Positions 34,446 through 64,000 of a DNA stretch of 64,000 bases are shown here, piece by piece; positions within the stretch are counted from its first letter, which is position 1, and every line of letters starts with the position of its first letter. The position numbers were made by a program, and so were the translations under genes. The notes beneath the pieces were generated by a model, which did not search any database, was not told the DNA's origin, and was given only the letters and a program-made list of their open reading frames with translations. Location of the stretch: the NCBI GenBank assembly GCA_051294905.1, contig CM119372.1, forward strand, positions 5,024,001 through 5,088,000. The letters are read 5' to 3'. This stretch comes from Botryllus schlosseri (Eukaryota).

Positions 34446-37400
34446 ATGTCCAAAGGAATGTTTAAGCAATTTCACAAAGCGAGTCAGGTATGATCTAATG
34501 CTTCACCTTTAATCATTAGGAGGATCGAATGTATTGACCTTTGCTTTGTCTGCAGTATGTGTCAGAAAAAATCGGCAGCGAAAATGACAAAACAACTATG
34601 GATAAAGAATTTGTTGAAATGGAAAGGGTAAGTTATTATCATTTCATATATAACATGGTTACATGGCAGTGCTGTTAAATTCGATGCAACATCGTTATTA
34701 CATTGATCACAAGCCATGATCATATGCTGTGTCCGCCTCTTGAATATGATTAAGGACTGATCTGCCAATTGAACGCGATTTCAAATACAGATATTTGCGT
34801 CGAACGTAGCTGGCTGAGGAAGTACTTCACCGCCTGGTGTACCTGTCACCGGTTTCGATTATTGTTCTTTTCCAGAAAGTGGACATCACAAATAAGGCCA
34901 TACAAGAAATCATGCAGTACACCAAAGAATATTTACAGCCCAATCCCGCGTCTCGTGCCAAACTCGGCATGATGAATACGTATTCTAAACTTCAGGTGAC
35001 ATTGTCCGTTCTATTGCCTTGCCCTGAGTTGATTGGTGGAAATTTCGTAATCTGATTGAATCGGTTTCGTTCGTTGCATTGGCGTTTCCGTACTGACCTC
35101 AGCATTTTCTTACCGATTGTATTAGCTGCTCAGTTTTGTAACTTGGACTACATTGTGATATAGTCACAAGTGGATGAATCACAATTAATGCTTTTCTCCA
35201 CAATCAGGCTTGTCTTTTGTTCAGCAGCCTACATTGTATAACCCGACTAGTGTACTGCGGGTACTGTTTCACAATGACTCTTTTCTCAATGCCTTCATGA
35301 CTGGCTGTGTTTAACTTTTCTTCCTACATCAGGGGAAGCAGAGGGACATAAAATACCCGCAGCCAGAAGGCACGCTCGGTGAATGTATGCAGAAACATGG
35401 TGAAGAACTAGGGCCTGAATCCCGCTTTGGTAAGCCCCAGGATCGCGTGTGTGTTGCTGTATTGAAGTCTATTTGACTGTGTACCGAAAATAGCTACATC
35501 TTCGTTGATATCAATGTATGGAAACTAAAACTACGTGCTGGCGAGTGTTGTCCAAACCAGTTTCCGTTTTGATTGCAAACATTAGAAGCATAGATGGCTG
35601 AAGTGGTCAATTAACATTCCACCTTTTAAAGCCAATCGCCACGATAGGTATATTTTGCATCTGGTTATTAATTTCTCTGGTTGTAAAGGTGCGGTAGTGT
35701 AATCACCCACTCGAGTTCCTTGAAATGCATTCATTTGACCTTTGTGTTACATAATGTTTTGAAACAACTATTCTTGAAACTTCCGGTGTTGGTAATAGAC
35801 CTTTGTTGGTTTCTGCACACATGTCCTATCGATCATTGCTGTCTGAGGCGGAATTTGTGTGATTAGCAGGGACTTGCTATGTGTTTTGGTGTTTAATACC
35901 TAGTATCATGTCTAATGTCTATTAATTTAAATACCCCTGTCTATTATGAACGATTGCGAGTCGGAAGGTGGTACGAATAAGGGTAAGGATTTGCTGGGTC
36001 ACACCAGCGCATTGTTCATTAACTTTCATCAATGTCTTGTTTATCAAATATGTTACCAGCGTAACGAATAACTAGTTCTGTAATTTATACTAGCCTGCGG
36101 GAAGCCCCAATGATGATGAATGCGAAAAATACTACAATTCGTGTTGTAATTCACATCCATCTCCTTGTGATTACTTAACCCACTTTAACACACACCCCCT
36201 GTTGCCATCGCAATGTGAAGGGTGCTCATGTGAAAGTCACGATACAATCCATCTTCGGTGATATTGGATTTGGATGTATTGTGGTATGCTGAACATTCGA
36301 TTGTGGAACTCCATCAGAGTCCGTGGGGAAAATGAGTACTGCAGTCGTCAGCAATACGATTTGTTTTGCTTGCAGGCACTGCGTTGTGCGAAGTCGGGGA
36401 GTCGTTTTCACAAATGTCCGAAATCAAGGACTCTCTCGATATCAGCGTCAAACAGAATTTCATCGATCCTCTACAACAACTATGCGACAAAGACATCAAA
36501 GAAGTCATGGTTATCCGCTTTCACATTTTTCACCGAATTCAATCCAGACACTGTGTGGTTCTCAAACTTTTTGTCCCGTCTCCCACCGTATTTTAGTCAT
36601 CGACCCCTGAAATTTTGAGGGTACTAACAGCCACGCACAAAACTCGAAGGGAACCCCGTTTTAAAAACCGCTGGCCTGTATAGTATGCATGTTTGATACC
36701 CCTGTTCCTGTTTCAGGTGAACCGAATCACCGTAATATGAACCCAACCCAACAACAGATAATACGAAATAATTGTGACAATAAACCGTGATGTGGCAAGG
36801 CATTTAAAAGGGCTAAACATTTGATCCGTCCTCCGATGAAAAATTCATGAATGGGTTGATTAAATATAATGTAATCAACCTTTAGCATTTTGATCACCTA
36901 CCATGTTCTTGCCACTGTCCTCCCCTAAGCACCCCAATCCCGCAATGATGATTTTTGTGCACTTGTCTTTGCCGACTTGAAGAGTCACTGTTATGAATAG
37001 TTGGATCGTGTTTCATTTTCTTTGTTCGTCCTGGTTGATGACCATTTTACAGAGAGATGAACAGTATGAAAGTTTCATTATCATGGTCGGTCAATTAGCA
37101 TTGAGTTCAATATGCTATAGTCTGTGGGGGCTTGGTAATTACTTCCAAAAAGACTTTTGTTGAAATTTTAGGTTGCCAATGTACACTCCTGTGATACTTT
37201 GCTATGGAATTGTACCCTTGATATCATGTTTCATTCCCCGTAATCTTTTTCAGCATCATCGTAAGAAGTTGTCTGGAAACCGTTTGGATTATGACTACAA
37301 GAGAAAACGGGGTAATTATATCCTTTTCTGCTTTCCAATGAGTCTGGGGATGACTTTTTAAACCAGACTTTACATCGAATAAGAATACCAAATACCCTTA

Positions 37401-40400
37401 GTGCAGGTACTCAATGTACTTGGCCACAAGTGGGACTATTACCGTGTATGCCAGCTTTTGAAATAAATTTATTAAGGTGTGATATTTCAACTCGTTGACA
37501 ACGCTGCACATCCGGTGGCAATGTCGGCTTTTTCTGGTATTCAAAGTTTGAGGAAAACAAACTGTAGCTAGTTATTTCGTGTACATGTTTTATTGTGGTC
37601 AGCTCCGGTATAGCCCCCATATTTTTCCGTATCAGTTAATTATCTACTTGCTATGTGCCGTGTGCATCTCTCTCGCTCCGACTCACCACTTGGCTGTCTC
37701 GTGCAATGTATTCCTTTACGAAGGGCAAAAAATTTCAAGTAAAGAACTTCAGCTTGCCGAATCCAAGCTGTCGGATTGCTATGACATGGCCGACAAGGCC
37801 ATGTTCAACTTCTTGCATCACGAAGTGAGTCTGCGAGTGGTCGGCGGGAATGGTTTCATACGGAATGGCTATGCGTCTTGCACTGGAATTAGATGATTTG
37901 CATTGATGCAATGTTTGGATGTAGCTCTGCCGCAGATTGTGATTAACTTGATTTGGAGTGAAGCTAACTTTACTATTTAGCTCTCAACTGCTGTTTTCGC
38001 GTCAATCATAGTCGGAAGTAATCACGTTTCATGTCTCTTAACGTTGGCCTGGTGATTTCCGCGTGATTACGCAAATCGTGCGGTAGTTGCCGGGTATTGT
38101 GTAGCTCTGCGATTGATTGTGCTTGAGATTCATTCGGGCACTGGTGGCGTCGTGTGCCGTGCACACTTGTCGCTGGCAAATATGTGATCAGGTGTGCTAA
38201 TGTGTTACGGGGCACAGGCGTGATTCTGTGATAATGCCAAAATCATGTTGATCTATGAGATTTGCTTGGCACGGTCGGTAATGTTAGTAATGTAGTAACA
38301 TGAAAATATTTGTCATCACTGATACGGCATAGTTTTGAAGTGATAGTAGTATATTGAGAATGAAAATATCGTCAAGGTACACACATACATCTACAGTACT
38401 TCGAATACGGTAATCTGAATTCGTTGATGGTGCCATTCAGTTTGTTTGTTGAGGATTGATGTGGGCCTATTATGTACAATTGTGTACATGTTACCCTGCA
38501 CTGGCTACTTAACGCTCGGGCGGAAATTTCGAACTGTTTTAATTTTCACCCTTCGTAGCAATGATTGTAGCCTTGCCGAACGAATCTCTTTTAATTTTTG
38601 GCTTGAAGTAGCCTTTTCCGCTTTGTCTAACACCCCCAAGCTAACTTCAGGTAGCAAAGTGTCCCAGGAGGAGCTGAAAACGGCTGAAGAAAAATTGCAG
38701 GAGTCTCTCGATCGCGCCGACACCAGCATGTTCAATTTGCTATCAGGAGATGTGAGTTTGGCGCGTCCCGTGTATTATATGAGATGTCCCAAACTCTCTT
38801 TCAATGCGATGTCTGTCTAACCGGACGTTGATATCAGCTGGTTGAAGGCAAATGTAATGGGAGTGTTTGAGACGCACACATAAGTCAAATTGAGGGCAGT
38901 AGTTGTTGACTACACATGCCAGAACAATCTTGTTTCCCTTACAAGGAAACTTTTGGCGCATTGACAAAAGCTTGCATTAAATTTCTTCCATTGAGCTGTT
39001 GTGCCCCTGAGACCAAACAACCGTTCTGCAGTGGCTCTGTAGGATATGAAACAACGTCTTTCATCCTGAGAAGGTAATGTTTGACTTTGTTCTGAATCAC
39101 AGAGCATTGATGGATATGTAACATGATTCATAAATCTGATGAGGTAGTCGCTTCATTCCTGCAGTCCAATGCCCTTGCCCCGTCTGTTTTTACAAAGCAT
39201 AGCATTGAACAACACGGCCTGTTTGTTACGTATTGAGCACTTAGCTTTAGAACCGTAGTGAATGCACGACCACAATGAAAATTGGGTAGCAGGTGTGATT
39301 TTGTATTTTTGTGATTGAGCGTTGCGTAGATCGGGTGATTCATTGTATGATGACTAGATGTTAATACCTTCTTTAATATCACGTTACTCAGACGGTAGCT
39401 ATCTAATGTGTCTCTTACAGTTTAATGCTCAAATGTTTTGTGAATCTGGCCAGATGGTGTTTTAGAATTTGAGACTTTTATTATATATGATTTATAGGGA
39501 ATGAATTTCATATCCAATTTTACATGAACCATGTGTTTCTTGATTAAGATTGGATTTCCCACGTATGTTTGACCATGTCAGTAATGCCACAATTTCTAAC
39601 TTATTGGCAAAGATCTGTTACCATGAATTCAGAGCCTTGATTAAGACATATAAACACTATGTAAACCAAAGTAAAGCCAAGCCAGTATGCGTTGTTCAGT
39701 CTTGAATATATGATGACGAACAGTGTCATCAAAATATCAGATTCAGTGATGCTGCCACTTACAGGTGGAACAAATAAGCCAATTAGACACACTGGTCGAA
39801 GCGCAATTGGAATACCATCGTCAGTCTGCCGATATTCTGGAATCACTGCACGAGCAACTACAAAGGAAAATCGATGACATTAACATGGAACCATCTAAGG
39901 TAGCTGTTGTGCTGAGATTCCAACCATCATAGAGACTTGTTCCCTTGTGATAAATCTAAGTTATCTGTCTCTCTGCCCTAACCTGGTCTCACTTGGGGAA
40001 GATATGGTCAGGGTTTTATGACGTTGGTTACTTCATGGTATGGCAAGAATTTTGAGAGAAGATCAATTTCACATATGTATCAGCGGTGGCGCAGAAACTT
40101 TGCAGGCTATCTGAGTTTTGGGGTTCACTTATCCACTAAAATTGCGAATTCAATCTTCTCCCATGACCTGTTGGCGGGGTGCCTCTATATTGTCTGTGAG
40201 ATAACGTGCCACAATAACGATTGGTAATTACAGGAACGGACAAAGAAAACGTTGCGCACAAGGAGCTCGGCCAGCGGCAACGATTCCGGAAGTGGAAATT
40301 CATCCACCCCGCCGTCAGCCAGCCCGAGGCACTCTGGCGCGCCGCCACCGACACAACCGCCAAAGCCTCCGGCGAAAGGTATTTGTAACGTAGCTTTTGT

Positions 40401-42438
40401 GTCGGTGTTGATAATTCGCAAATTTGAACTAATGTTAGGCTAGTTAGGGGTTCGGTCAGGGTAGGTGTGGATTAGGATTTAGGGCCACGAATTCCACATG
40501 CCAAATTCACCAAGCGCAGAAGTGCTTGGCTTCGCTCGAGTCGATGAGAAAGATGGAGTGAATCGTAACTCCGAGACAAATTCTCGAGACAATTTTTCCA
40601 ACTCAACACTTTGCAAAAAACTTCTGAAGTATTCTCACAGTCGCACTAGAGGTGATCGATGCCATTCTTAAATTTTTGAGTTTCGTCCCGTGTACATTTT
40701 CAATATGGCCGTAGCTGTTGTCAAAATGGCCTTCACTGGAATCTGCATCGCATCCACGGATTTAAAGAAACAGCTCCGACTCAAATGTTTGATGGCTTGA
40801 GATTGACCAGAGTCATGATTTCCAGCGATTCAAAATCACTCGAAGGTAGTGACTTGAAGCCAATTCCTGATTGGAATGAAACCCAACAGAAATCAAGTAT
40901 AGTTCATATCAAACCAGAGTTCATTCTCGTGAGCGTGAGATTGGAAAATGTGTGTACATTGAGCTCGACTCGTTTTGCTCTATACCTGGAGTGGCCAACC
41001 CGTGGACCGTGGGCTACATTTGGTTTTGAGTGGCCATCGAGGTAATTCTCAAAATTAGTTACATATCAAAAAATAAATTATCCAGGTAATTTATGATGAT
41101 CTTGCGAGGCCAACCAAAAGTTTGATTAGCCTGACCGTGAAATTTGGGACATTGCTGACTAAAATATCAGTTCCGACGCGTTCGCCGTGAAGTAGAATAT
41201 TTCGTGGCAAATTTATTTGACTTAATGTTTTTCTTATCGCTTCACGCGATTTATTGTCACTCGATTTCTTGCTTTCAGTATTGGTGCCCACTCCCGAAAA
41301 TTAAAAATACGCATGATTTACAGAATTGAGTCAACTATATCCGCAATTATAAGAGAACTGTTGTCAAACATACGAATTAGCGTCTGCACGCGCTGAAAGA
41401 TCGTCGGCGACGCAACATTTGCACAAAATGACAGAGACGCATGTTCGCCAAAATCTTCGATATTGATATGTCCGAGCTCAGAATCATCCTGTCCTTTATC
41501 AAATAGGAACAGCGGCATACAAGGCGACCCAAAATATATGCTAATAACTAGGGCAAGTTTTTGTTAAAAGCATTACTTCGGTGCTGATTTACGGTGTTTC
41601 AGTCGAATTTGGCCGTGTATTTCACTAAAATCGAAAATACTTTCACGATAAATCGAAAAAGTTGCAAAATGTTGCAAAAAGTTGCATGAAAAAAATGGAC
41701 AAAAGTTGCACTATAAGATTCCTTCAAACAGCTTAAAACAGCATTCTACATATCTTACGAGTATTTTGGAAGCTGCCGGAAGCTGTAAAAAAAGTTGCAA
41801 AAATTTGCCCTACTAATAACATTGTTTTTGACCGAATTCATTCATTACCTTTTAATAAATTTAGCGCTATACGCGGCTAGGAGAAGAATGAATGCTCACA
41901 GTTTCGATGTCATCATTGTTATCGATTTTGATGTGTAATAATATATATCTTGTTCTCACCGTTACCTAGTCCGGTTCGCTCCTATCGGACGTCAAAAAAA
42001 AGGTCATCCACATTAAAGTGGCCCGCGCAATGATTCGGAAATCTCATGTGACCCTTTGGCCGAAAAGGTTGGTCACCCCTGCTCTTGACAGTTTTCTTGA
42101 AGCATTTTCAGGAAAACCGGGAATTGAATTCAAATTAAAATCTTGAGCATCGATACATTTATAAATAGACTATTCTAATTAGTAAAGTAATTGCTGCTGT
42201 CCAAATACGTAGGTAGTCGACCGATATTTATCATTTTTATTGCGTCTCGACAGAGCAACCTTGCTGCAAAGCGCTCTACGACTTTGAAGCGGAAAACGAA
42301 GGCGAACTCGGTTTCGAAGAGGGCGACGTGATCACGCTGACGTCGCAAATCGATGACAATTGGTACGAGGGTATGCTGAAGGACAAGCTCGGCTTTTTCC
42401 CGGTCAACTACGTCGAAGTCGTAGTGCCTTTGCCTTGA
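34446..42438 (+). CDS. SH3GL2: Endophilin A (N-BAR + SH3), ~362 aa
   Basis: Exons 34446-34487, 34556-34627, 34876-34995, 35333-35429, 36376-36509, 37254-37311, [37724-37824 or 38651-38751], 39765-39899, 40234-40378, 42254-42438. Diagnostic peptides [45 protein letters not shown] and SH3 [20 protein letters not shown]...WYEG...GFFPVNYV. The symbol stands for the SH3GL1/2/3 co-orthologue. Confidence 0.95.
37724..37824 (+). CDS. Endophilin A alternative exon 7a
   Basis: AG acceptor at 37722-37723 and GTGAGT donor; 101 nt, phase 1-0; encodes (G)[33 protein letters not shown]. Confidence 0.8.
38651..38751 (+). CDS. Endophilin A alternative exon 7b
   Basis: CAG acceptor and GTGAGT donor; 101 nt, phase 1-0; encodes (G)[33 protein letters not shown], the copy closer to canonical endophilin A. 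Confidence 0.88.
40986..42081. mobile_element. Old hAT-like element in the last endophilin intron
   Basis: Termini ctggagtggccaacc / ggttggtcacccctg; degenerate TSD ctctatac / ctcttgac. Confidence 0.7.
41549..41812. mobile_element. MITE family 'tagggcaagtttttg', copy 2, nested in the 40986-42081 element
   Basis: Perfect TSD ctaataac. Confidence 0.88.
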
Positions 42439-50206: not shown

Positions 50207-52318
50207 TCAGTGCCGCAAAGTCTTCAGTATCGCGTTTACCTCATCAGCGACAGCCGTCAGGGCAAATTCAAACTGATCCTTATTCGCAACCATGCCCACA
50301 CGCTGATCTCTAATATGCTCCAAAGTAGCGGCAATATCAATCTCCTTCGCACCCTTGAGCATTCGATTGATAGCGAGATCAAGAAGTATGTAAGTGCCAG
50401 TTCTACCGACTCCGTCGCTGCAATGAACCAACACAGGAGAGTTATGAGCTTTGCTGCATTTTGTAACTTTACGACGTAACTCCAATAGAGGTTTCGGTGT
50501 CGAAGGAACACTGTCCTTGGGCCAGGAGAGAAAGTGGAATTGTGTCACCGTGCGAGTTTCCCCCGTCACCAAATGTTTGAGGTACAGGCTTCGCACGAGG
50601 TAATCATCACACCAAATATGTTCAGACACGAGATTGATTTCAAAGTTGTGATATGTACAGGAGCCTTCATCGGGCCAGTATCTAGCACACTGGCTGACAC
50701 CTTCCTCAACCAAAGCAGTTAGCATGACTACAGACACGCAGCCCTGTTCCCAAATCATCTGCCAAAAATCTGGGACGGTGGAGAGAAGAGGGCCTTGTGC
50801 GGCGATATACAAAGGTCGTTTTCTGTCATTGTCGATAATCTTACTGGCGTTGATGTAATCGCTGCCAATATGATTATCAGAACTCGACAGTTCAACGCGG
50901 TTAGCGTCATACGGAAGTGCACTGTGTGAACAATTTTTCAAGCTGTTTTCCGAAGAGTTTGCTACATTCGTAGTGACATTATCAGCTTCGTAACTACAAA
51001 TCTCCTCCCATTCTTCATCAAGTCTGTTCAATATCAGATGGTCCTCCATGTAAGACAAAAGGACATGCGCCGTGGTAATATCTAAGTTTGCAGTCACTGG
51101 TTCTTCACTCCAAGATACGGATGAGACACTTGAATTCCTGGTGGTGTAGTCACGGCTCATGTTTTGCTCTGCGCTGCTTGGCATTGATCTCTTTTTCAAT
51201 GATTTAGACGCAATGCCATCGTAATCTTCATCAATAAGATTAGATTCCGCGTCGATCTCGGAATTCTCATTGGCGTACCGCTGTCGGCAGAGATCTTCAT
51301 AATCATCGCCGTTAGGGTTAGTCATGCTTTCGAGAAACTTCAAATCTTGCTGCTTTTTTCTCCGACAGGCGTAGTAGATGCAGCTTACGATTGTAACTAA
51401 AATTATCAAGATTACGGTAGTACCTACAATGATAAGCACGATGTATAAGGTATCTTTTTGTATCTTCGAACTGTCTGTGGAACGGCTGGAGGTCGAGAAG
51501 TCTGAAGCTACGCTTTTGGCAGTTTTGGGCAATACTGGAATCTGCTCCTGCGCTTCCAGCTCAGTGTTTTGAGATTCTGAGGGAACCTCTTCTATTGCGT
51601 CATCAGAAACATCAGAGTCATGGAAATGCCTCGATTTTTTACTATCCTGTTTGCTCGACAACATAGATTGTTGTGCATTGGGCATTATATTGCTGTCGCG
51701 AGGTTTTGATTCAAGTAAAATCCCTTGCTTAAATTCTTTAGGATGTGCACGATTGTTGTGCTCAATCTGATCCTTTCTTATGACGTTTGCCAAATATTCG
51801 ATCAACATGTCAATTTCATCTTCACGCAGATCTTTCAACTTCTTTCCTTTCTTCGCAAGCGCATCTTGAACTTTATCTAGTAATTTGATGACACGTTGAT
51901 GAATTTCTTGCTTGTGTTTCTCTTCTCTTATCTCAGCATCTGATATTAGACCCATGGAATCTGCACTAGCGTCATCGAGTGCAGGCACGTCATGGTTGCT
52001 ACTGGAGCGATATTCTCGGCGTTCCGGCCTCTTCAAGTATCTGTCATTGTATTCCATATTACTTGATTTTGGAGCATCGTCACTCTTGTACGAGTCCAAG
52101 GCTCTCAATATTGGCAGTTTATATGCTTCCAAATTACCATCAATGGAGCTGCTACGTTGTCGGGCCGGTGTTTGGCAATATCCAGTGACGCCGTCACAAT
52201 CCTCAGGGGGGACGCAAACACTTGGCGTGAATATGCATCCGTACCGTCCGCTGTTGTAATTTGAGTCTACTTCTGAAGCCAGCGGCAGAAGCAGTAATGC
52301 TACGTAAAGGAGCATCAT
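50207..52318 (-). CDS. PTPRN: Receptor-type PTP-like N (IA-2/phogrin family) pseudophosphatase, single coding exon, 703 aa
   Basis: Signal peptide; N-terminal Cys motif GCIFTPSVC...CDGVTGYCQ; one TM helix; [38 protein letters not shown] domain with [15 protein letters not shown] and [11 protein letters not shown]-terminus [10 protein letters not shown]. The symbol stands for the PTPRN/PTPRN2 co-orthologue. Confidence 0.96.
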
Positions 52319-53210
52319 GACGATGTTATACTTTTCTGCTCCACAATTTTACAATTCGGTAGGCAGACCACAAAACGGAGTAAAATAATCCGCATCGCCG
52401 AACGGTAGACAGCGCGAACGCGATATTACTACTGCCAAGATCAAGATGGCGAACCCACAGAAATCATAATACTAATATCGAAGAAGTTCGGAAAATCTCA
52501 AGAGAGTCGATATTATTACGACATCACGCGGATGCCCCATCGCAAATAATGAAGTATGTCGTGCGGTAATATTATATATTGATTCGTCCAACTATAGTCG
52601 TTGCTGTAATCAGCTGTGATCCAACCGAAAAGAAAATTACATCAGCGTATGACAATCATACCAAAAGAAGCTTGACGGTGTAGGACAGGGTGTAATCGAT
52701 ATGTCTCTGGGTAGGGTCAACTGCTGAACACGTTCTGCAGTGCTCTGCATTAAAAAATGGAAATGTTATTTATATATTTGGTTGTGGTTGATTGGAGAAA
52801 ATATCGCCATTTAACTCTCGAAACATGCACGAACGCCGAACAGGTTATACGTCCGGGGTATATGATGTCGACCAGTTGCTCTAAAACCTAACAAAAGTGG
52901 TGCAAACATCTTTTCTACTTACAAAAAAATCGAAAATGTGAAACTTATGAGCCCTACTATAATTTTTCATGTTAAAAAAATATATCAACAGCAATTTATA
53001 TCGAAGCAGACCATAACCAAATTGCGGCGAAAATTGCCTCGGAGCTGACTTTTATTAAAATACGCCAACCAAGTCCGTGCCAACAGAATAAGGAGTTCGT
53101 GTACCATCCAAGAATAGTAGGCCTACATTGAAGTTAAAGCGCTCTCATTTCGCCCCGATTCTTCGAAATTTCATGCAGGTGACGTCATATTTTGTCATAC
53201 GATTGTTGTT

Positions 53211-59890: not shown

Positions 59891-62263
59891 ATGGACAGTA
59901 GAGATTGGCTACAGCCGCAGCCTACTACGTCTTGTACCTTATGGCTTCTACTGCAGACAACCGTTATTGTACTTGGATCAAGTTTTCAATTTGGCTATAA
60001 CACCGGTGTCATCAACGCACCGCAGGCCTACATTGAAGGCTTTATTAATGAGAGTTATCGTGACCGGTAAGTTTAAGCACCTCCAGTAAGTTATACTACC
60101 CATGGCCGCTATAATTTGCTACAAATCATCACCATATCATTGGTACGTTATGGCACCATAAAACTTTCTCGTACTGCACCGGTACGTTATTATGTAATAT
60201 AGATTGTCACAATAGATGGGTGACTTCTTCGAATTTTTGTAAAGTCTTCCTGGCTACGCGGATGTGCATATGCTATATAGCTCTATCGTCTCCTTAATAT
60301 AGAGTCTATAATACACATTCTATACAGACATCAATCTATAAGGAGTCTTGGCGATGCAGGCATAGAAAATCGGGCTTCCTCCAAGCTGCCTCGTTTCGCG
60401 TAATGGCATCAATCGTTATATTTGGTGCAACACTTTACGGAGTATTCTTCAACTGTACGTGGCTTTGTCTCTCCCGCGAGTGGAGTGATGTCATAATAAC
60501 TTGGTAAATTGTGATCGGGTTTTGGCAAAATCGATGAGTAACTGGGTGATTCTGTTCGAGTAGGGCTGGGCACAATGATTCGAGTCGAGTAGTAAATGAC
60601 GATTTTTTCGAGTACTGAAATTATAGGCTCCTCGCAACTGTAAGTTAATTTATCAACGGGAATTATAGTTTCGATACCAATTTTCACTGTTGAAGGCTTG
60701 AAACTTTGATTGGCCGTATCGTGGCATACGAAACATATAGTACAAAGCTACGAATGTTACTGGAAATAGCACATTTCCGAAGTCATGATCATCCCACAAC
60801 ATTGTCACCAAGTGCAATGAAATCGGTATGGTCGAAATAATACCTAAGTATCTTTAATGTGATGAATAACAGGCATTATATATTTTGCGGTCGTATAAAA
60901 GGTACACATTTGAACTTTGACATATTGCATACTGTCATGACGTCATAATGAGTGATACTCGATTACTCGACTCGAAGCATATTCCGTGATTCAGAATCGA
61001 ATCACTCAGGTACTCGATTTTGCCCAGCCCTAGTTCCGAGTCGAATATTTCGAATCGAGTACGGCATATTATGACGACATGGCAGTAGTAATGACTTTGA
61101 ATGTTGGTTGCAGTCACAAGGAAGATGATACCAGTGACCATTCGCACATCATTCAAAATAATTTCGATTTGTCGTTTCATGAATATTCGTAGTCTTGTTG
61201 CAACATGGTTGGCGATGCTGAGCTACGTTTTACGGTTTCGGGTATTCAACAGTAGGAATAGAGCATTGAATCTATATTTTTCGCTGACAAGATATTACTC
61301 TTGACTCGAAGGCGTGCGTTTTCGTTACTTGAAAGTAACTACTTTCGCCACACCGCTGGAATCTTTACAATTGATCGGACCCATATGTCCAGCTCGAATT
61401 TTTATGTAGACATTCGAGGATACTGGAGTAAAATAACTATACGCAACGCACTAGTTCTGGTAACAATACGGTTTCGAAATCCACATCAACAAGCGCAAAA
61501 CAATACGGTACAGTACGATAAAAATATCGAAATTACGCAACGAACGATACTTTAGCGTATGTGATCCGTTAATATTAGCAAATTTCCATGATTCCCAGAG
61601 CAGTTATCATTAAGTTTTGTAGCTACATTTCCTATGCTTTCAAGATGTCCTAGGACTTCGCGGTATGATGATCAATTCGACTCATCCGACTTCACCATCA
61701 CATTGCATTACTTCTTAGTCGGATTCTACTGAGGATACGCTATAAATCATATTTCAAGACACTTTGGATTTGATAGTCCACGCGACTTACCCGTCTCATC
61801 TGTTAATTGGTTAACTTTCTTGCGACAGGTTTGGCGAGGTTATAAGTCAATCGTCTCTGACTGTTCTATGGAGCTCGACAGTCGCGATATTCGCCGTCGG
61901 CGGAATGATCGGGTCGCTGGCGGCTGGACCGCTTTCGCAAGTTCTCGGCCGTAAAAGGTCGCTGCTATGCAACAATTTGATCGCCCTCGCGGGCGCATGT
62001 CTGATGGGGTTTTCTAAGCTGGCAAACTCCTATGAGATGCTCATGATCGGTAAGAAGCACATATTCGATAATCACACACTTTGTATGGTTTTGCGGATTT
62101 GTTACATCATCGTCATACAGGGCGCTTTGTGATCGGCGTAGACTGTGGGATCAACACTGTAATCGCGCCAATGTTTTTGACCGAGATATCCCCCGTTCAG
62201 CATCGCGGCATGCTCGGAACGCTTAACCAACTTGGAATAGTATCGTCGATCCTGATATCACAA
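59891..62263 (+). CDS. SLC2A1: Facilitative glucose transporter, class I GLUT-like; 5' part, presumably continuing beyond the window
   Basis: Exons 59891-60066, 61829-62049, 62121-62263; in-frame TGA at 59885-59887 precedes the ATG. Motifs [57 protein letters not shown]...[13 protein letters not shown]. Exact SLC2A1-4 orthology unresolved. Confidence 0.92.
60561..61032. mobile_element. MITE family 'tagggctgggca', copy 3, in GLUT intron
   Basis: Colinear with 16255-16769; flanks gttcgag / gttccgag. Confidence 0.9.
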
Positions 62264-64000
62264 GTAAGAACTCCCTATACATTGTACGCCAGATAATTCA
62301 AATACATTTGGGAGTTTGAGATAAAATATAATTGTATGCCGTGCTAGTGGGCAGTGGGCACTTCCATTCACCATACACAGAAAGTACTTCCTACCTTGCA
62401 AGAGTGTACTTGTACGTTTTATGTGAAGTATACCGCCAAATGTGCACCAAATGTGACGGGGTAATGATATAAATCTCAACAAGTTGCTAGTACTACCACG
62501 GCTTACGTAACTAAGTAGCTATTCAATGAACATTGTTCATGTTTTACTACGTATGGTCAATAATGGAGTAATTTGATTTGGCACAACTATATACGGAACA
62601 TAAAAATAAGGTACTGAAACGCCACGGATATTTCCTTGTTGTTACGTGATTATATGAACTAACGCCGGATGCTTCAACTCATCGACACACGACTTGTTTT
62701 AGTGCTATAGTTGACCGAATTCACGAAGACTATTACTATACCGGCTCGCATATAGTCGCACATCCACGACCTAACCATGACCAGACCAGACACTAACACA
62801 CAACACAGCGCAGATCCTTTTGCGATTGCTGGGTAATGTGTATGTAGTAGTTTAGATTTCAACCACCGACAGCACCCTATGTATTTAACATTCCCGTGAA
62901 CGTGATCAACACAGAATGCGGAGTTAACGGTCACGCGTATCAGATGTGTTCAGAGTGTGACAGGATGCCGTCCCGTGTGCGACGTGTGCGACTGTGCGTG
63001 CATCGAATCAAACGGCTCACAATATTTAAAAGGCACGGCGCGAATCGGGCTGTATTTTTCCGCACTTTGATACGTTACATAACTTTCGGCGTTTCGTAAT
63101 GGTCATCTCTGAACACCTCACTCCAATAGTTATGTAATGAGAATTCCTGGCTGTAAGTCATTGTTGTACAACATCGCAAGGGGTGGTATGTACAAAGCTC
63201 ATCTGCAGCTTAATCTGTGTTTGAGTCGGAGTCCAGAACAACAGATCTTCAGCATCGTCACGGCTATTGCGACGATGTCTAAGTTTAAGTGCAATTTTGG
63301 TAATCGTCATGCGTGCGTAACTGATCCCAGGTGAAATTTATTAGCGCTTGATTTGAAACTCGCCAAGTCACAGTGATGATTGAGAATAATACTTATGCAT
63401 CGCAAAACGTACCACCTGGTGTAATTCTCCAAACCTTATTCGGGACTAGGTTACAGGTATACCGGGAGATGATTAGTGTGGTCACGTGACGGATAGGTTT
63501 TCCATTCGGCCGCTATCGATTAGCTGATGGATTTGTTCAATAAATTTATGTGCATTCCAGTTATTTTGATGCGTCATTTTCCCAGATACCGTGTAGGAGT
63601 TTGGGTCCTCGTTTAGGATATCTGGACAAAGTCTCGGTTTCAACATGCAGGCCAACAACTGTCTTGACAGAATGGCCTAGGCCTTAACTGCGATAGCGTT
63701 AGTGCTATATCTGTAGGATTACCGTATTTTGGAAATCTGAAAAGAGGACACTTTTTCAAAATTTTCAGACTTACAATACTGGACTAAAATCCTGAAAAAA
63801 TGCGAAATTTTTCCGGACTTCGTGGTCGGTTGACTAAAACAAGACAAGGTCATTTTTCTGGCTCAAGTCCCGAAAACCGTTATTTGGCCGCTGATTTCCT
63901 ATATCTCTGCCAATTTCCACGTACATTTGACAAAAATTCTTCAAAAAGAGGACATTTAGCCGTCCTCCGAGGCGGCGGTCTTCCGATAAACTAGATTTCA

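Follow-up and report, generated by a model that had tools for sequence, protein, structure and literature searches.

Homologous, probably alternative exons in the BAR domain of endophilin A in Botryllus schlosseri and other tunicates

The single-copy-like endophilin A gene of Botryllus schlosseri carries two adjacent homologous exons, 7a and 7b, each encoding a version of the first part of helix 3 of the BAR domain, and this exon swap is real, conserved and probably pan-tunicate. Both exons lie in the 64,000-nucleotide stretch of contig CM119372.1 analysed here (the window). We consider it quite probable that the pair goes back to an early tunicate duplication, with 7b as the default exon and 7a as a minor exon whose use would be restricted to certain cell types and whose product would have an altered BAR arm.

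The gene and its duplicated exon

The endophilin A product consists of an N-BAR domain, a linker and an SH3 domain, and translation gives 362 aa with either 7a or 7b (Table 1). Pfam matches to BAR (PF03114) and SH3 were obtained with the close relative P0003 and six RefSeq isoforms, and the named matches among the 120 listed were all endophilin A or SH3GL, the others being uncharacterised or hypothetical proteins. A fold search with P0012 as stand-in gave 47–53% identity to endophilin A versus about 20% to endophilin B1. When the 495.5 Mb genome was searched with 7a, exactly two matches were found, 7a itself and 7b; exon 8 had one match, and exon 3 had one real match and one weak, stop-containing match. 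As exons 8 and 3 each have a single good match and 7a has two, the B. schlosseri genome appears to contain a single endophilin A gene. The exon 5 donor (36509-36510) is a weak-looking GTTATC, and its joint to exon 6 is nevertheless used in three of four RNA runs.

Table 1. Coordinates of the endophilin A gene and its exons in the window
Feature	Position	Strand	Description
Endophilin A gene, coding span	34446..42438	+	RNA joints, translation; ATG read from sequence
Coding exons before exon 6	34446-34487, 34556-34627, 34876-34995, 35333-35429, 36376-36509	+	
Exon 6	37254..37311	+	58 nt, phase 0-1; last part of BAR helix 2 plus basic tip (KRKR)
Intronic interval from exon 6 to exon 7b, containing 7a	37312..38650	+	unspliced contigs in two runs
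Exon 7a	37724..37824	+	upstream, minor duplicate; open frame, splice sites; a-type counterparts in 4 other tunicates
Exon 7b	38651..38751	+	downstream, default duplicate; RNA joints; b-type in tunicate cluster representatives
Exon 8	39765..39899	+	135 nt, phase 0-0; second half of helix 3, in both isoforms
Coding exons after exon 8	40234-40378, 42254-42438	+	

The original prediction described 7a and 7b as two homologous 101-nt exons, and its coordinates, lengths, phase, donors, open frames and peptide identity were all reproduced: each exon is 101 nt long and of phase 1-0, with an AG acceptor, a GTGAGT donor and an open frame, and the peptides are identical at 16/34 aa. This likeness is not due to chance: of the 82 101-nt AG..GT segments in the window that are open and in a compatible phase, the best one after 7a matched 7b at 6/34. 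First and second codon positions of the pair match at 40/67 and third positions at 9/34 (Fisher p=0.0018), and the 100-nt flanks match at just 29/100 and 33/100. The diverged third positions and unmatched flanks indicate that the duplication is old and that both copies are under selection at the protein level.

Elsewhere in the window, the minus strand contains a single 713-codon open frame (50210-52348), which begins like a signal peptide and includes a transmembrane stretch and a tyrosine phosphatase domain that we take to be of the PTPRN/IA-2 type; the lack of introns over this length suggests a retrocopy or intron loss. On the plus strand, several short frames with hydrophobic, membrane-protein-like stretches recur between about 8100 and 26000, and exons that look like those of a GLUT-type sugar transporter are situated near 61800-62300. 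Repeats in the last intron of endophilin A (40700-42160), where each of the four runs shows very deep read coverage and numerous loose ends, are regarded as mobile or dispersed elements.

Splicing of exons 7a and 7b

Translation of exon 6 joined through either 7a or 7b to exon 8 reads through, as opposed to inclusion of both exons, which leads to a stop at aa 216 (354 nt before the last junction), and inclusion of neither, which leads to a stop at aa 211 (167 nt before the last junction; residues numbered from 34449). Including both or neither exon therefore breaks the frame, as originally claimed. The RNA sample consisted of two raw runs, of which 6% and 3% were read, and two contig sets, with RNA status guessed. 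The joint between exons 6 and 7b occurs in all four (two reads, one read and contigs) and that between 7b and exon 8 in three of the four, whereas the 15 listed joints of the four runs (with four further joints beyond these) include none to or from 7a, at a joint depth so low (two reads per 7b joint in X23) that rare joints fall under the listing threshold. Counting junction reads by tissue had been proposed with the original prediction: in these shallow runs, which carry no tissue labels, the 7b joints (37311-38651 and 38751-39765) were recovered and no 7a joint was among those listed. Since the 7b joints are the sole exon 7 joints listed, 7b is the default exon, which agrees with the b-type segment of the tunicate representatives described below, and use of 7a in B. 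schlosseri is predicted. The X23 bins with 7a have a depth of 0.16 and 0.05 (about 47 and 15 bases), which could represent one spliced fragment but is given no weight here.

The interval between exons 6 and 7b, in contrast to most of the other introns, is itself covered by unspliced contigs, at a depth of about 9–17 in X1 and about 3–11 in X9, with a depth of zero in both sets in bins 35464-35754, 36046-36336, 36628-37209 and 40411-40701; the intron after 7b is also covered in X1. This coverage, in contigs without strand, probably means that introns at a regulated point of choice are spliced slowly or retained, with antisense RNA as the alternative. At 38398-38514, an X1 contig skips 115 nt with CT..AC ends, equivalent to a GT-AG intron on the minus strand, and the same stretch is kept in another contig; the skip reflects either an allele with a deletion or an antisense RNA that is spliced and spans the intron from 7a to 7b.

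A further view of the splicing of the pair comes from the JGI tunicate protein P0133, which is the same as P0012 through exon 6, continues with an a-type segment and ends in an out-of-frame tail. This tail fits the P0012 7b exon in a shifted frame at 27/27 positions (2000 shuffles: mean 6.1, maximum 15), and P0134 is the remaining C-terminal part. The P0133 record is a transcript in which 7a and 7b are spliced together. This double inclusion means that exclusion is leaky and not strict, and it also places the exons in the order 7a-7b in a second lineage. A 7a-7b joint was absent from the 15 listed joints of the four B. schlosseri runs. The description of the exons as mutually exclusive thus holds at the protein level, through the frameshift, but not as strict exclusion during splicing.

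With regard to how the choice is made, both exons have ordinary GT-AG ends, and the 7a donor lies about 770–820 nt from the branch-point-like sites of 7b, which makes a steric block unlikely. In Dscam-type exclusion the exons are selected by competing RNA structures, built from conserved, covarying docking and selector pairings. The best candidate duplex here, a helix masking the 7a acceptor (37717-37731 with 38543-38557, −16.2 kcal/mol), was matched in strength by 50 of 100 shuffles and is not put forward; its pair probability reached 0.94 in a fold window whose end lay close to both arms, and it was missing from the MFE structure of a wider window. Candidate duplexes in eight other splice-site windows were also at chance level. 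None of the splice-regulator motifs searched for around 7a (YCAY, PTB, CELF, MBNL, ESRP, RBFOX and QKI) stood out, with counts inside or barely over the range of the other eight exons. With the double inclusion in P0133, the simplest account is regulated competition favouring 7b, in which 7a and 7b would compete under the influence of regulators. In transcripts with both exons or neither, the frameshift leads to a stop whose distance from the last junction is sufficient for nonsense-mediated decay (NMD), by which such transcripts would be cleared.

Conservation, probable origin and possible consequences of the pair

Among named proteins, one of Styela clava is closest to P0003 (80% across P0003 residues 100-260), and the two group at 100/99 in the tree. 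Conservation of the exon pair in relatives, suggested as a check on the original prediction, was found in the RefSeq X isoforms of three ascidians, which are automatic models: in each species two isoforms of equal length differ exclusively within the 34-residue exon 7 window, with 15 differences in Styela (XP_077966542.1/XP_077966543.1), 16 in Clavelina lepadiformis (XP_076803690.1/XP_076803691.1) and 18 in Ciona intestinalis (XP_002120114.2/XP_009858316.2). These pairs also agree with the proposal of two isoforms differing at the start of helix 3, and the a-type segment of P0133 adds a lineage that lies inside the tunicate branch of the tree, apart from the named ascidians. The b-type segment is present in all ten of the tunicate cluster representatives that are unnamed or have a single isoform (P0003, P0006, P0008-P0013, P0017; also, with names, P0007 and P0016). 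P0128, from another tunicate, ends a few residues past exon 6. A third Ciona isoform (P0137, XP_078483948.1) has 13 extra residues at 170-182 in the tip loop, at the boundary of exons 6 and 7b, an insert reminiscent of exon 6 of endophilin B1, a short exon of 39 nt.

When 26 exon peptides were placed in a tree, the five a-types fell on one side of a branch with support of 87/80, which is unstarred and based on 34 columns with long branches. Five groupings representing separate duplications all fit worse (p-AU 0.025, 0.049, 0.057, 0.067 and 0.10), and two of the five were rejected at 0.05. Since the five a-type exons group together, one early tunicate duplication is likely the better reading. 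Exon 7a groups with the Styela a-exon at 86/83 (18/34 identical), on a branch of length 0.82, while by raw identity the a-types of Ciona and Clavelina are closer to Botryllus 7b (20/34 and 22/34) than to its 7a (16/34 each). Mean identity within classes is 16.9/34 for a-types and 23.5/34 for b-types, compared with 24.9 for the next 34 residues. A direct search with both exons gave P0003 as the sole match among 150 candidates, and none of the 230 proteins with a match contained two exon 7 segments. Likewise, none of 79 metagenome loci had two exon 7 matches of at least 8 bits, their best segments being 37–64% identical, and no close tunicate locus with the exon pair was among them. Two of these loci (L053 and L067) resemble P0154, a long-branch protein on the tunicate side, and L067 has a tip loop without an intron. 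The a/b pair was likewise not found among four Acanthaster and three hagfish cluster members; the Acanthaster isoforms X1 and X2 are of equal length and differ in the first exon, not in the exon 7 segment. The duplication was seen in tunicates only, in a sample that does not extend to amphioxus.

The original prediction also held that an additional, lineage-specific intron had made this module duplicable, which is not supported, the phase-1 tip-loop intron being present in non-tunicate loci. In L061 and L062 a phase-1 intron follows the basic tip in the same register, the exon 7 segment is encoded by a single phase 1-0 exon of 101 nt in L068 and of 95 nt in L083, and the tip loop contains a phase-1 donor in four further loci (L064, L066, L069 and L082); by sequence likeness these loci look arthropod-, rotifer- and coral-like. 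Vertebrate SH3GL genes presumably have one 159-nt exon here, equal to 58+101 of the Botryllus gene, and if this is correct, the presence of the intron in non-tunicate animals makes it more likely that vertebrates lost it. Two vertebrate endophilin A3 models, P0276 (Macaca XP_073852638.1) and P0192, leave frame at the tip loop and read on into the next exon out of frame (24/30 and 23/30 positions compatible with fish A3), and the phase-1 donor at this position may be left over from the old intron. In the tip loop, X1 and X3 of Acanthaster also differ by 2 aa, and the arthropod-like endophilin A loci L008 and L010 differ from L068 by a few residues, while the two phase-1 donors of L068 are separated by six bases; small splice variation at the tip loop may recur across animals.

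The effect of the swap on the protein was viewed in AlphaFold models of stand-ins, P0012 for the b isoform and Styela X2 for the a isoform. Both models have helix 2, a two-residue turn, a helix over columns 6-32 of the exon, a break at column 33 and the rest of helix 3. In the models, exon 7 spans the turn at the tip and the arm-side half of helix 3 as far as the kink, which agrees with the proposal that it encodes the start of helix 3 just after KRKR; 7b aligns to where helix 3 begins in endophilin A1 and A3. We take exon column n to correspond approximately to rat endophilin A1 residue 174+n, by our own alignment and partly assumed numbering. In a comparison of five a-type and 15 b-type sequences, columns 1, 3, 12, 13 and 15 do not vary at all. 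Column 5 holds Ser/Thr in 5/5 a-types and 2/15 b-types (Pro in 10/15 b-types, Ser in 2), column 11 is Leu in 5/5 and 1/15, column 4 is Val in no a-type and 14/15 b-types, and column 33, at the kink, is Gly in 0/5 and 14/15. The net charge is −2 for 7a, which has one Cys and two His, and −4 for 7b. Of the original characterisation of 7a as less acidic and carrying Cys/His, the lower acidity is found in four of five pairs (equal in Ciona), but Cys/His is not shared among the a-types and was rejected as an isoform trait. Judging from position, column 5 may be a helix cap or a kinase site and column 11 may be exposed. A published study places L187 at the tip and describes an acidic arm joined to the dimer core by kinks, with the tips unfolding first (PMC8374900). 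The likely effect of 7a would be a change in how stable the arm is, in how it contacts the membrane or lattice, or in its control by phosphorylation; the different membrane-binding or lattice properties proposed originally are thus a prediction.

The account we favour is that an ancient 101-nt exon, covering the tip turn and arm half of helix 3, would have been duplicated once in tandem in an early tunicate, after which 7b as the default exon would have kept the slower-evolving form. The minor exon 7a would be turned on only in a particular cell type or at a particular stage, for which nervous tissue or muscle is the prior expectation. Its product would keep its length, fold, H0, H1 insert, basic tip and SH3 domain, and have a re-surfaced arm with Ser/Thr in column 5 beside the basic tip, Leu in column 11, a kink without Gly and usually fewer acidic residues. 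One point against this account is that the a-types are less alike than the b-types, which also fits relaxed constraint. Alternatively, 7a and 7b could both be used and yet give nearly equivalent proteins, 7a being weakly constrained or having arisen by separate duplications in several tunicate lineages. The faster divergence of the a-types and the same secondary structure of both isoform models agree with this, as does, for separate origins, the failure to reject three of the five groupings at 0.05. However, the a-specific columns 5, 11 and 33 are shared, and the pair has been kept in a further tunicate clade and in Styela, Clavelina and Ciona, which we take to represent three ascidian orders; we consider this reading improbable.

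A regulatory role for 7a has to be weighed as well. It could mainly act as a poison element, with co-inclusion or intron retention leading to NMD and lowering endophilin A, and the 7a-only protein being minor. The only unannotated transcript-type record with an a-exon, P0133, does have both exons, unspliced contigs pile up between exons 6 and 7b in two runs, and P0128 stops where intron retention would be expected to end it. A poison element needs no conserved amino acids, though, whereas in five lineages 7a has retained both the core of the helix and residues specific to the a-type, with third positions saturated, and in-frame a-only isoforms are annotated in three RefSeq species; we give this explanation little credence. 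We also find it very hard to believe that 7a is a pseudo-exon recently silenced in B. schlosseri and functional in other ascidians: its long branch and the lack of a listed 7a joint in the four runs would fit, but its frame, AG acceptor and GTGAGT donor are intact, its resemblance to and grouping with the Styela a-exon are retained, and the reads are too few to reveal a minor isoform.

Comparison with known systems

The product matches endophilin A (SH3GL1/2/3; 1ZWW, 1X03, 2C08, 2Z0V) in having the same N-BAR and SH3 domains, and the best fold matches of the b-isoform model are endophilin A BAR domains. The original prediction knew of no such exon pair in endophilin A, and our literature search did not find a description of one either, although subscription papers and supplements on ascidian splicing could hold one. 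SH3GL has no match in the supplement of the human catalogue (PMC8373072), neither SH3GL nor endophilin has one in the main text of PMC9741552, and the supplement of PMC10573349 (719 characters) has no match. A 2025 review, as far as accessible, states that the human endophilin A genes each have multiple splice variants and says nothing further on them (PMC12457278). Ciona endophilin is required for expansion of the notochord lumen according to PMC10007804, in the main text of which 'isoform' and 'splic' have no matches.

While vertebrates have three endophilin A paralogues (PMC12457278), the Botryllus genome shows one gene with an internal exon swap. A tentative and, we think, rather doubtful extension is that tunicates reached by splicing what vertebrates obtained by gene duplication, with 7a specific to certain cells (neural or muscle) and giving a different membrane lattice or curvature. 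If true, the 7a arm would place a phosphorylatable residue by the basic tip, an extra surface Leu and a kink without Gly, cells expressing both exons would form asymmetric a/b BAR dimers, and nature would have provided, in the pair, a replicated experiment on the function of distal helix 3. Studies of endophilin function have mostly dealt with H0, the H1 insert, the linker and SH3 (PMC12457278). The 7a/7b swap alters the arm half of helix 3 only, with both versions kept across tunicates, and points to specific residues testable in a tractable chordate (Ciona).

Alternative splicing within an N-BAR domain is also reported for Bif-1 (endophilin B1), with neuron-specific exons 6 and 7 (PMC10269655), and within the BAR domain of BIN1, with an additional exon 7 (PMC5039012). 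However, these are cassette insertions which lengthen the domain, whereas 7a/7b replaces a homologous helix segment at unchanged length.

Replacement of one homologous exon by another is a known class of event, and the 7a/7b isoforms are members of it that are already in automatic annotation and were not found described. A point of reference is dynamin, the binding partner of endophilin. Human tandem duplicated exon substitutions include DNM1 and DNM2, with the dynamin internal exon event dated to Vertebrata (PMC8373072 and its supplement). The human events (PMC8373072 and PMC9741552) are like 7a/7b in involving exons that are old, adjacent, homologous and of equal length and phase, and in giving isoforms of the same length with core residues kept. 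Such events are mostly old, and three quarters of the human isoforms in this class are tissue-specific, mostly in nervous and cardiac tissue (PMC9741552). To these homologous exon swaps the 7a/7b pair adds a BAR-domain case.
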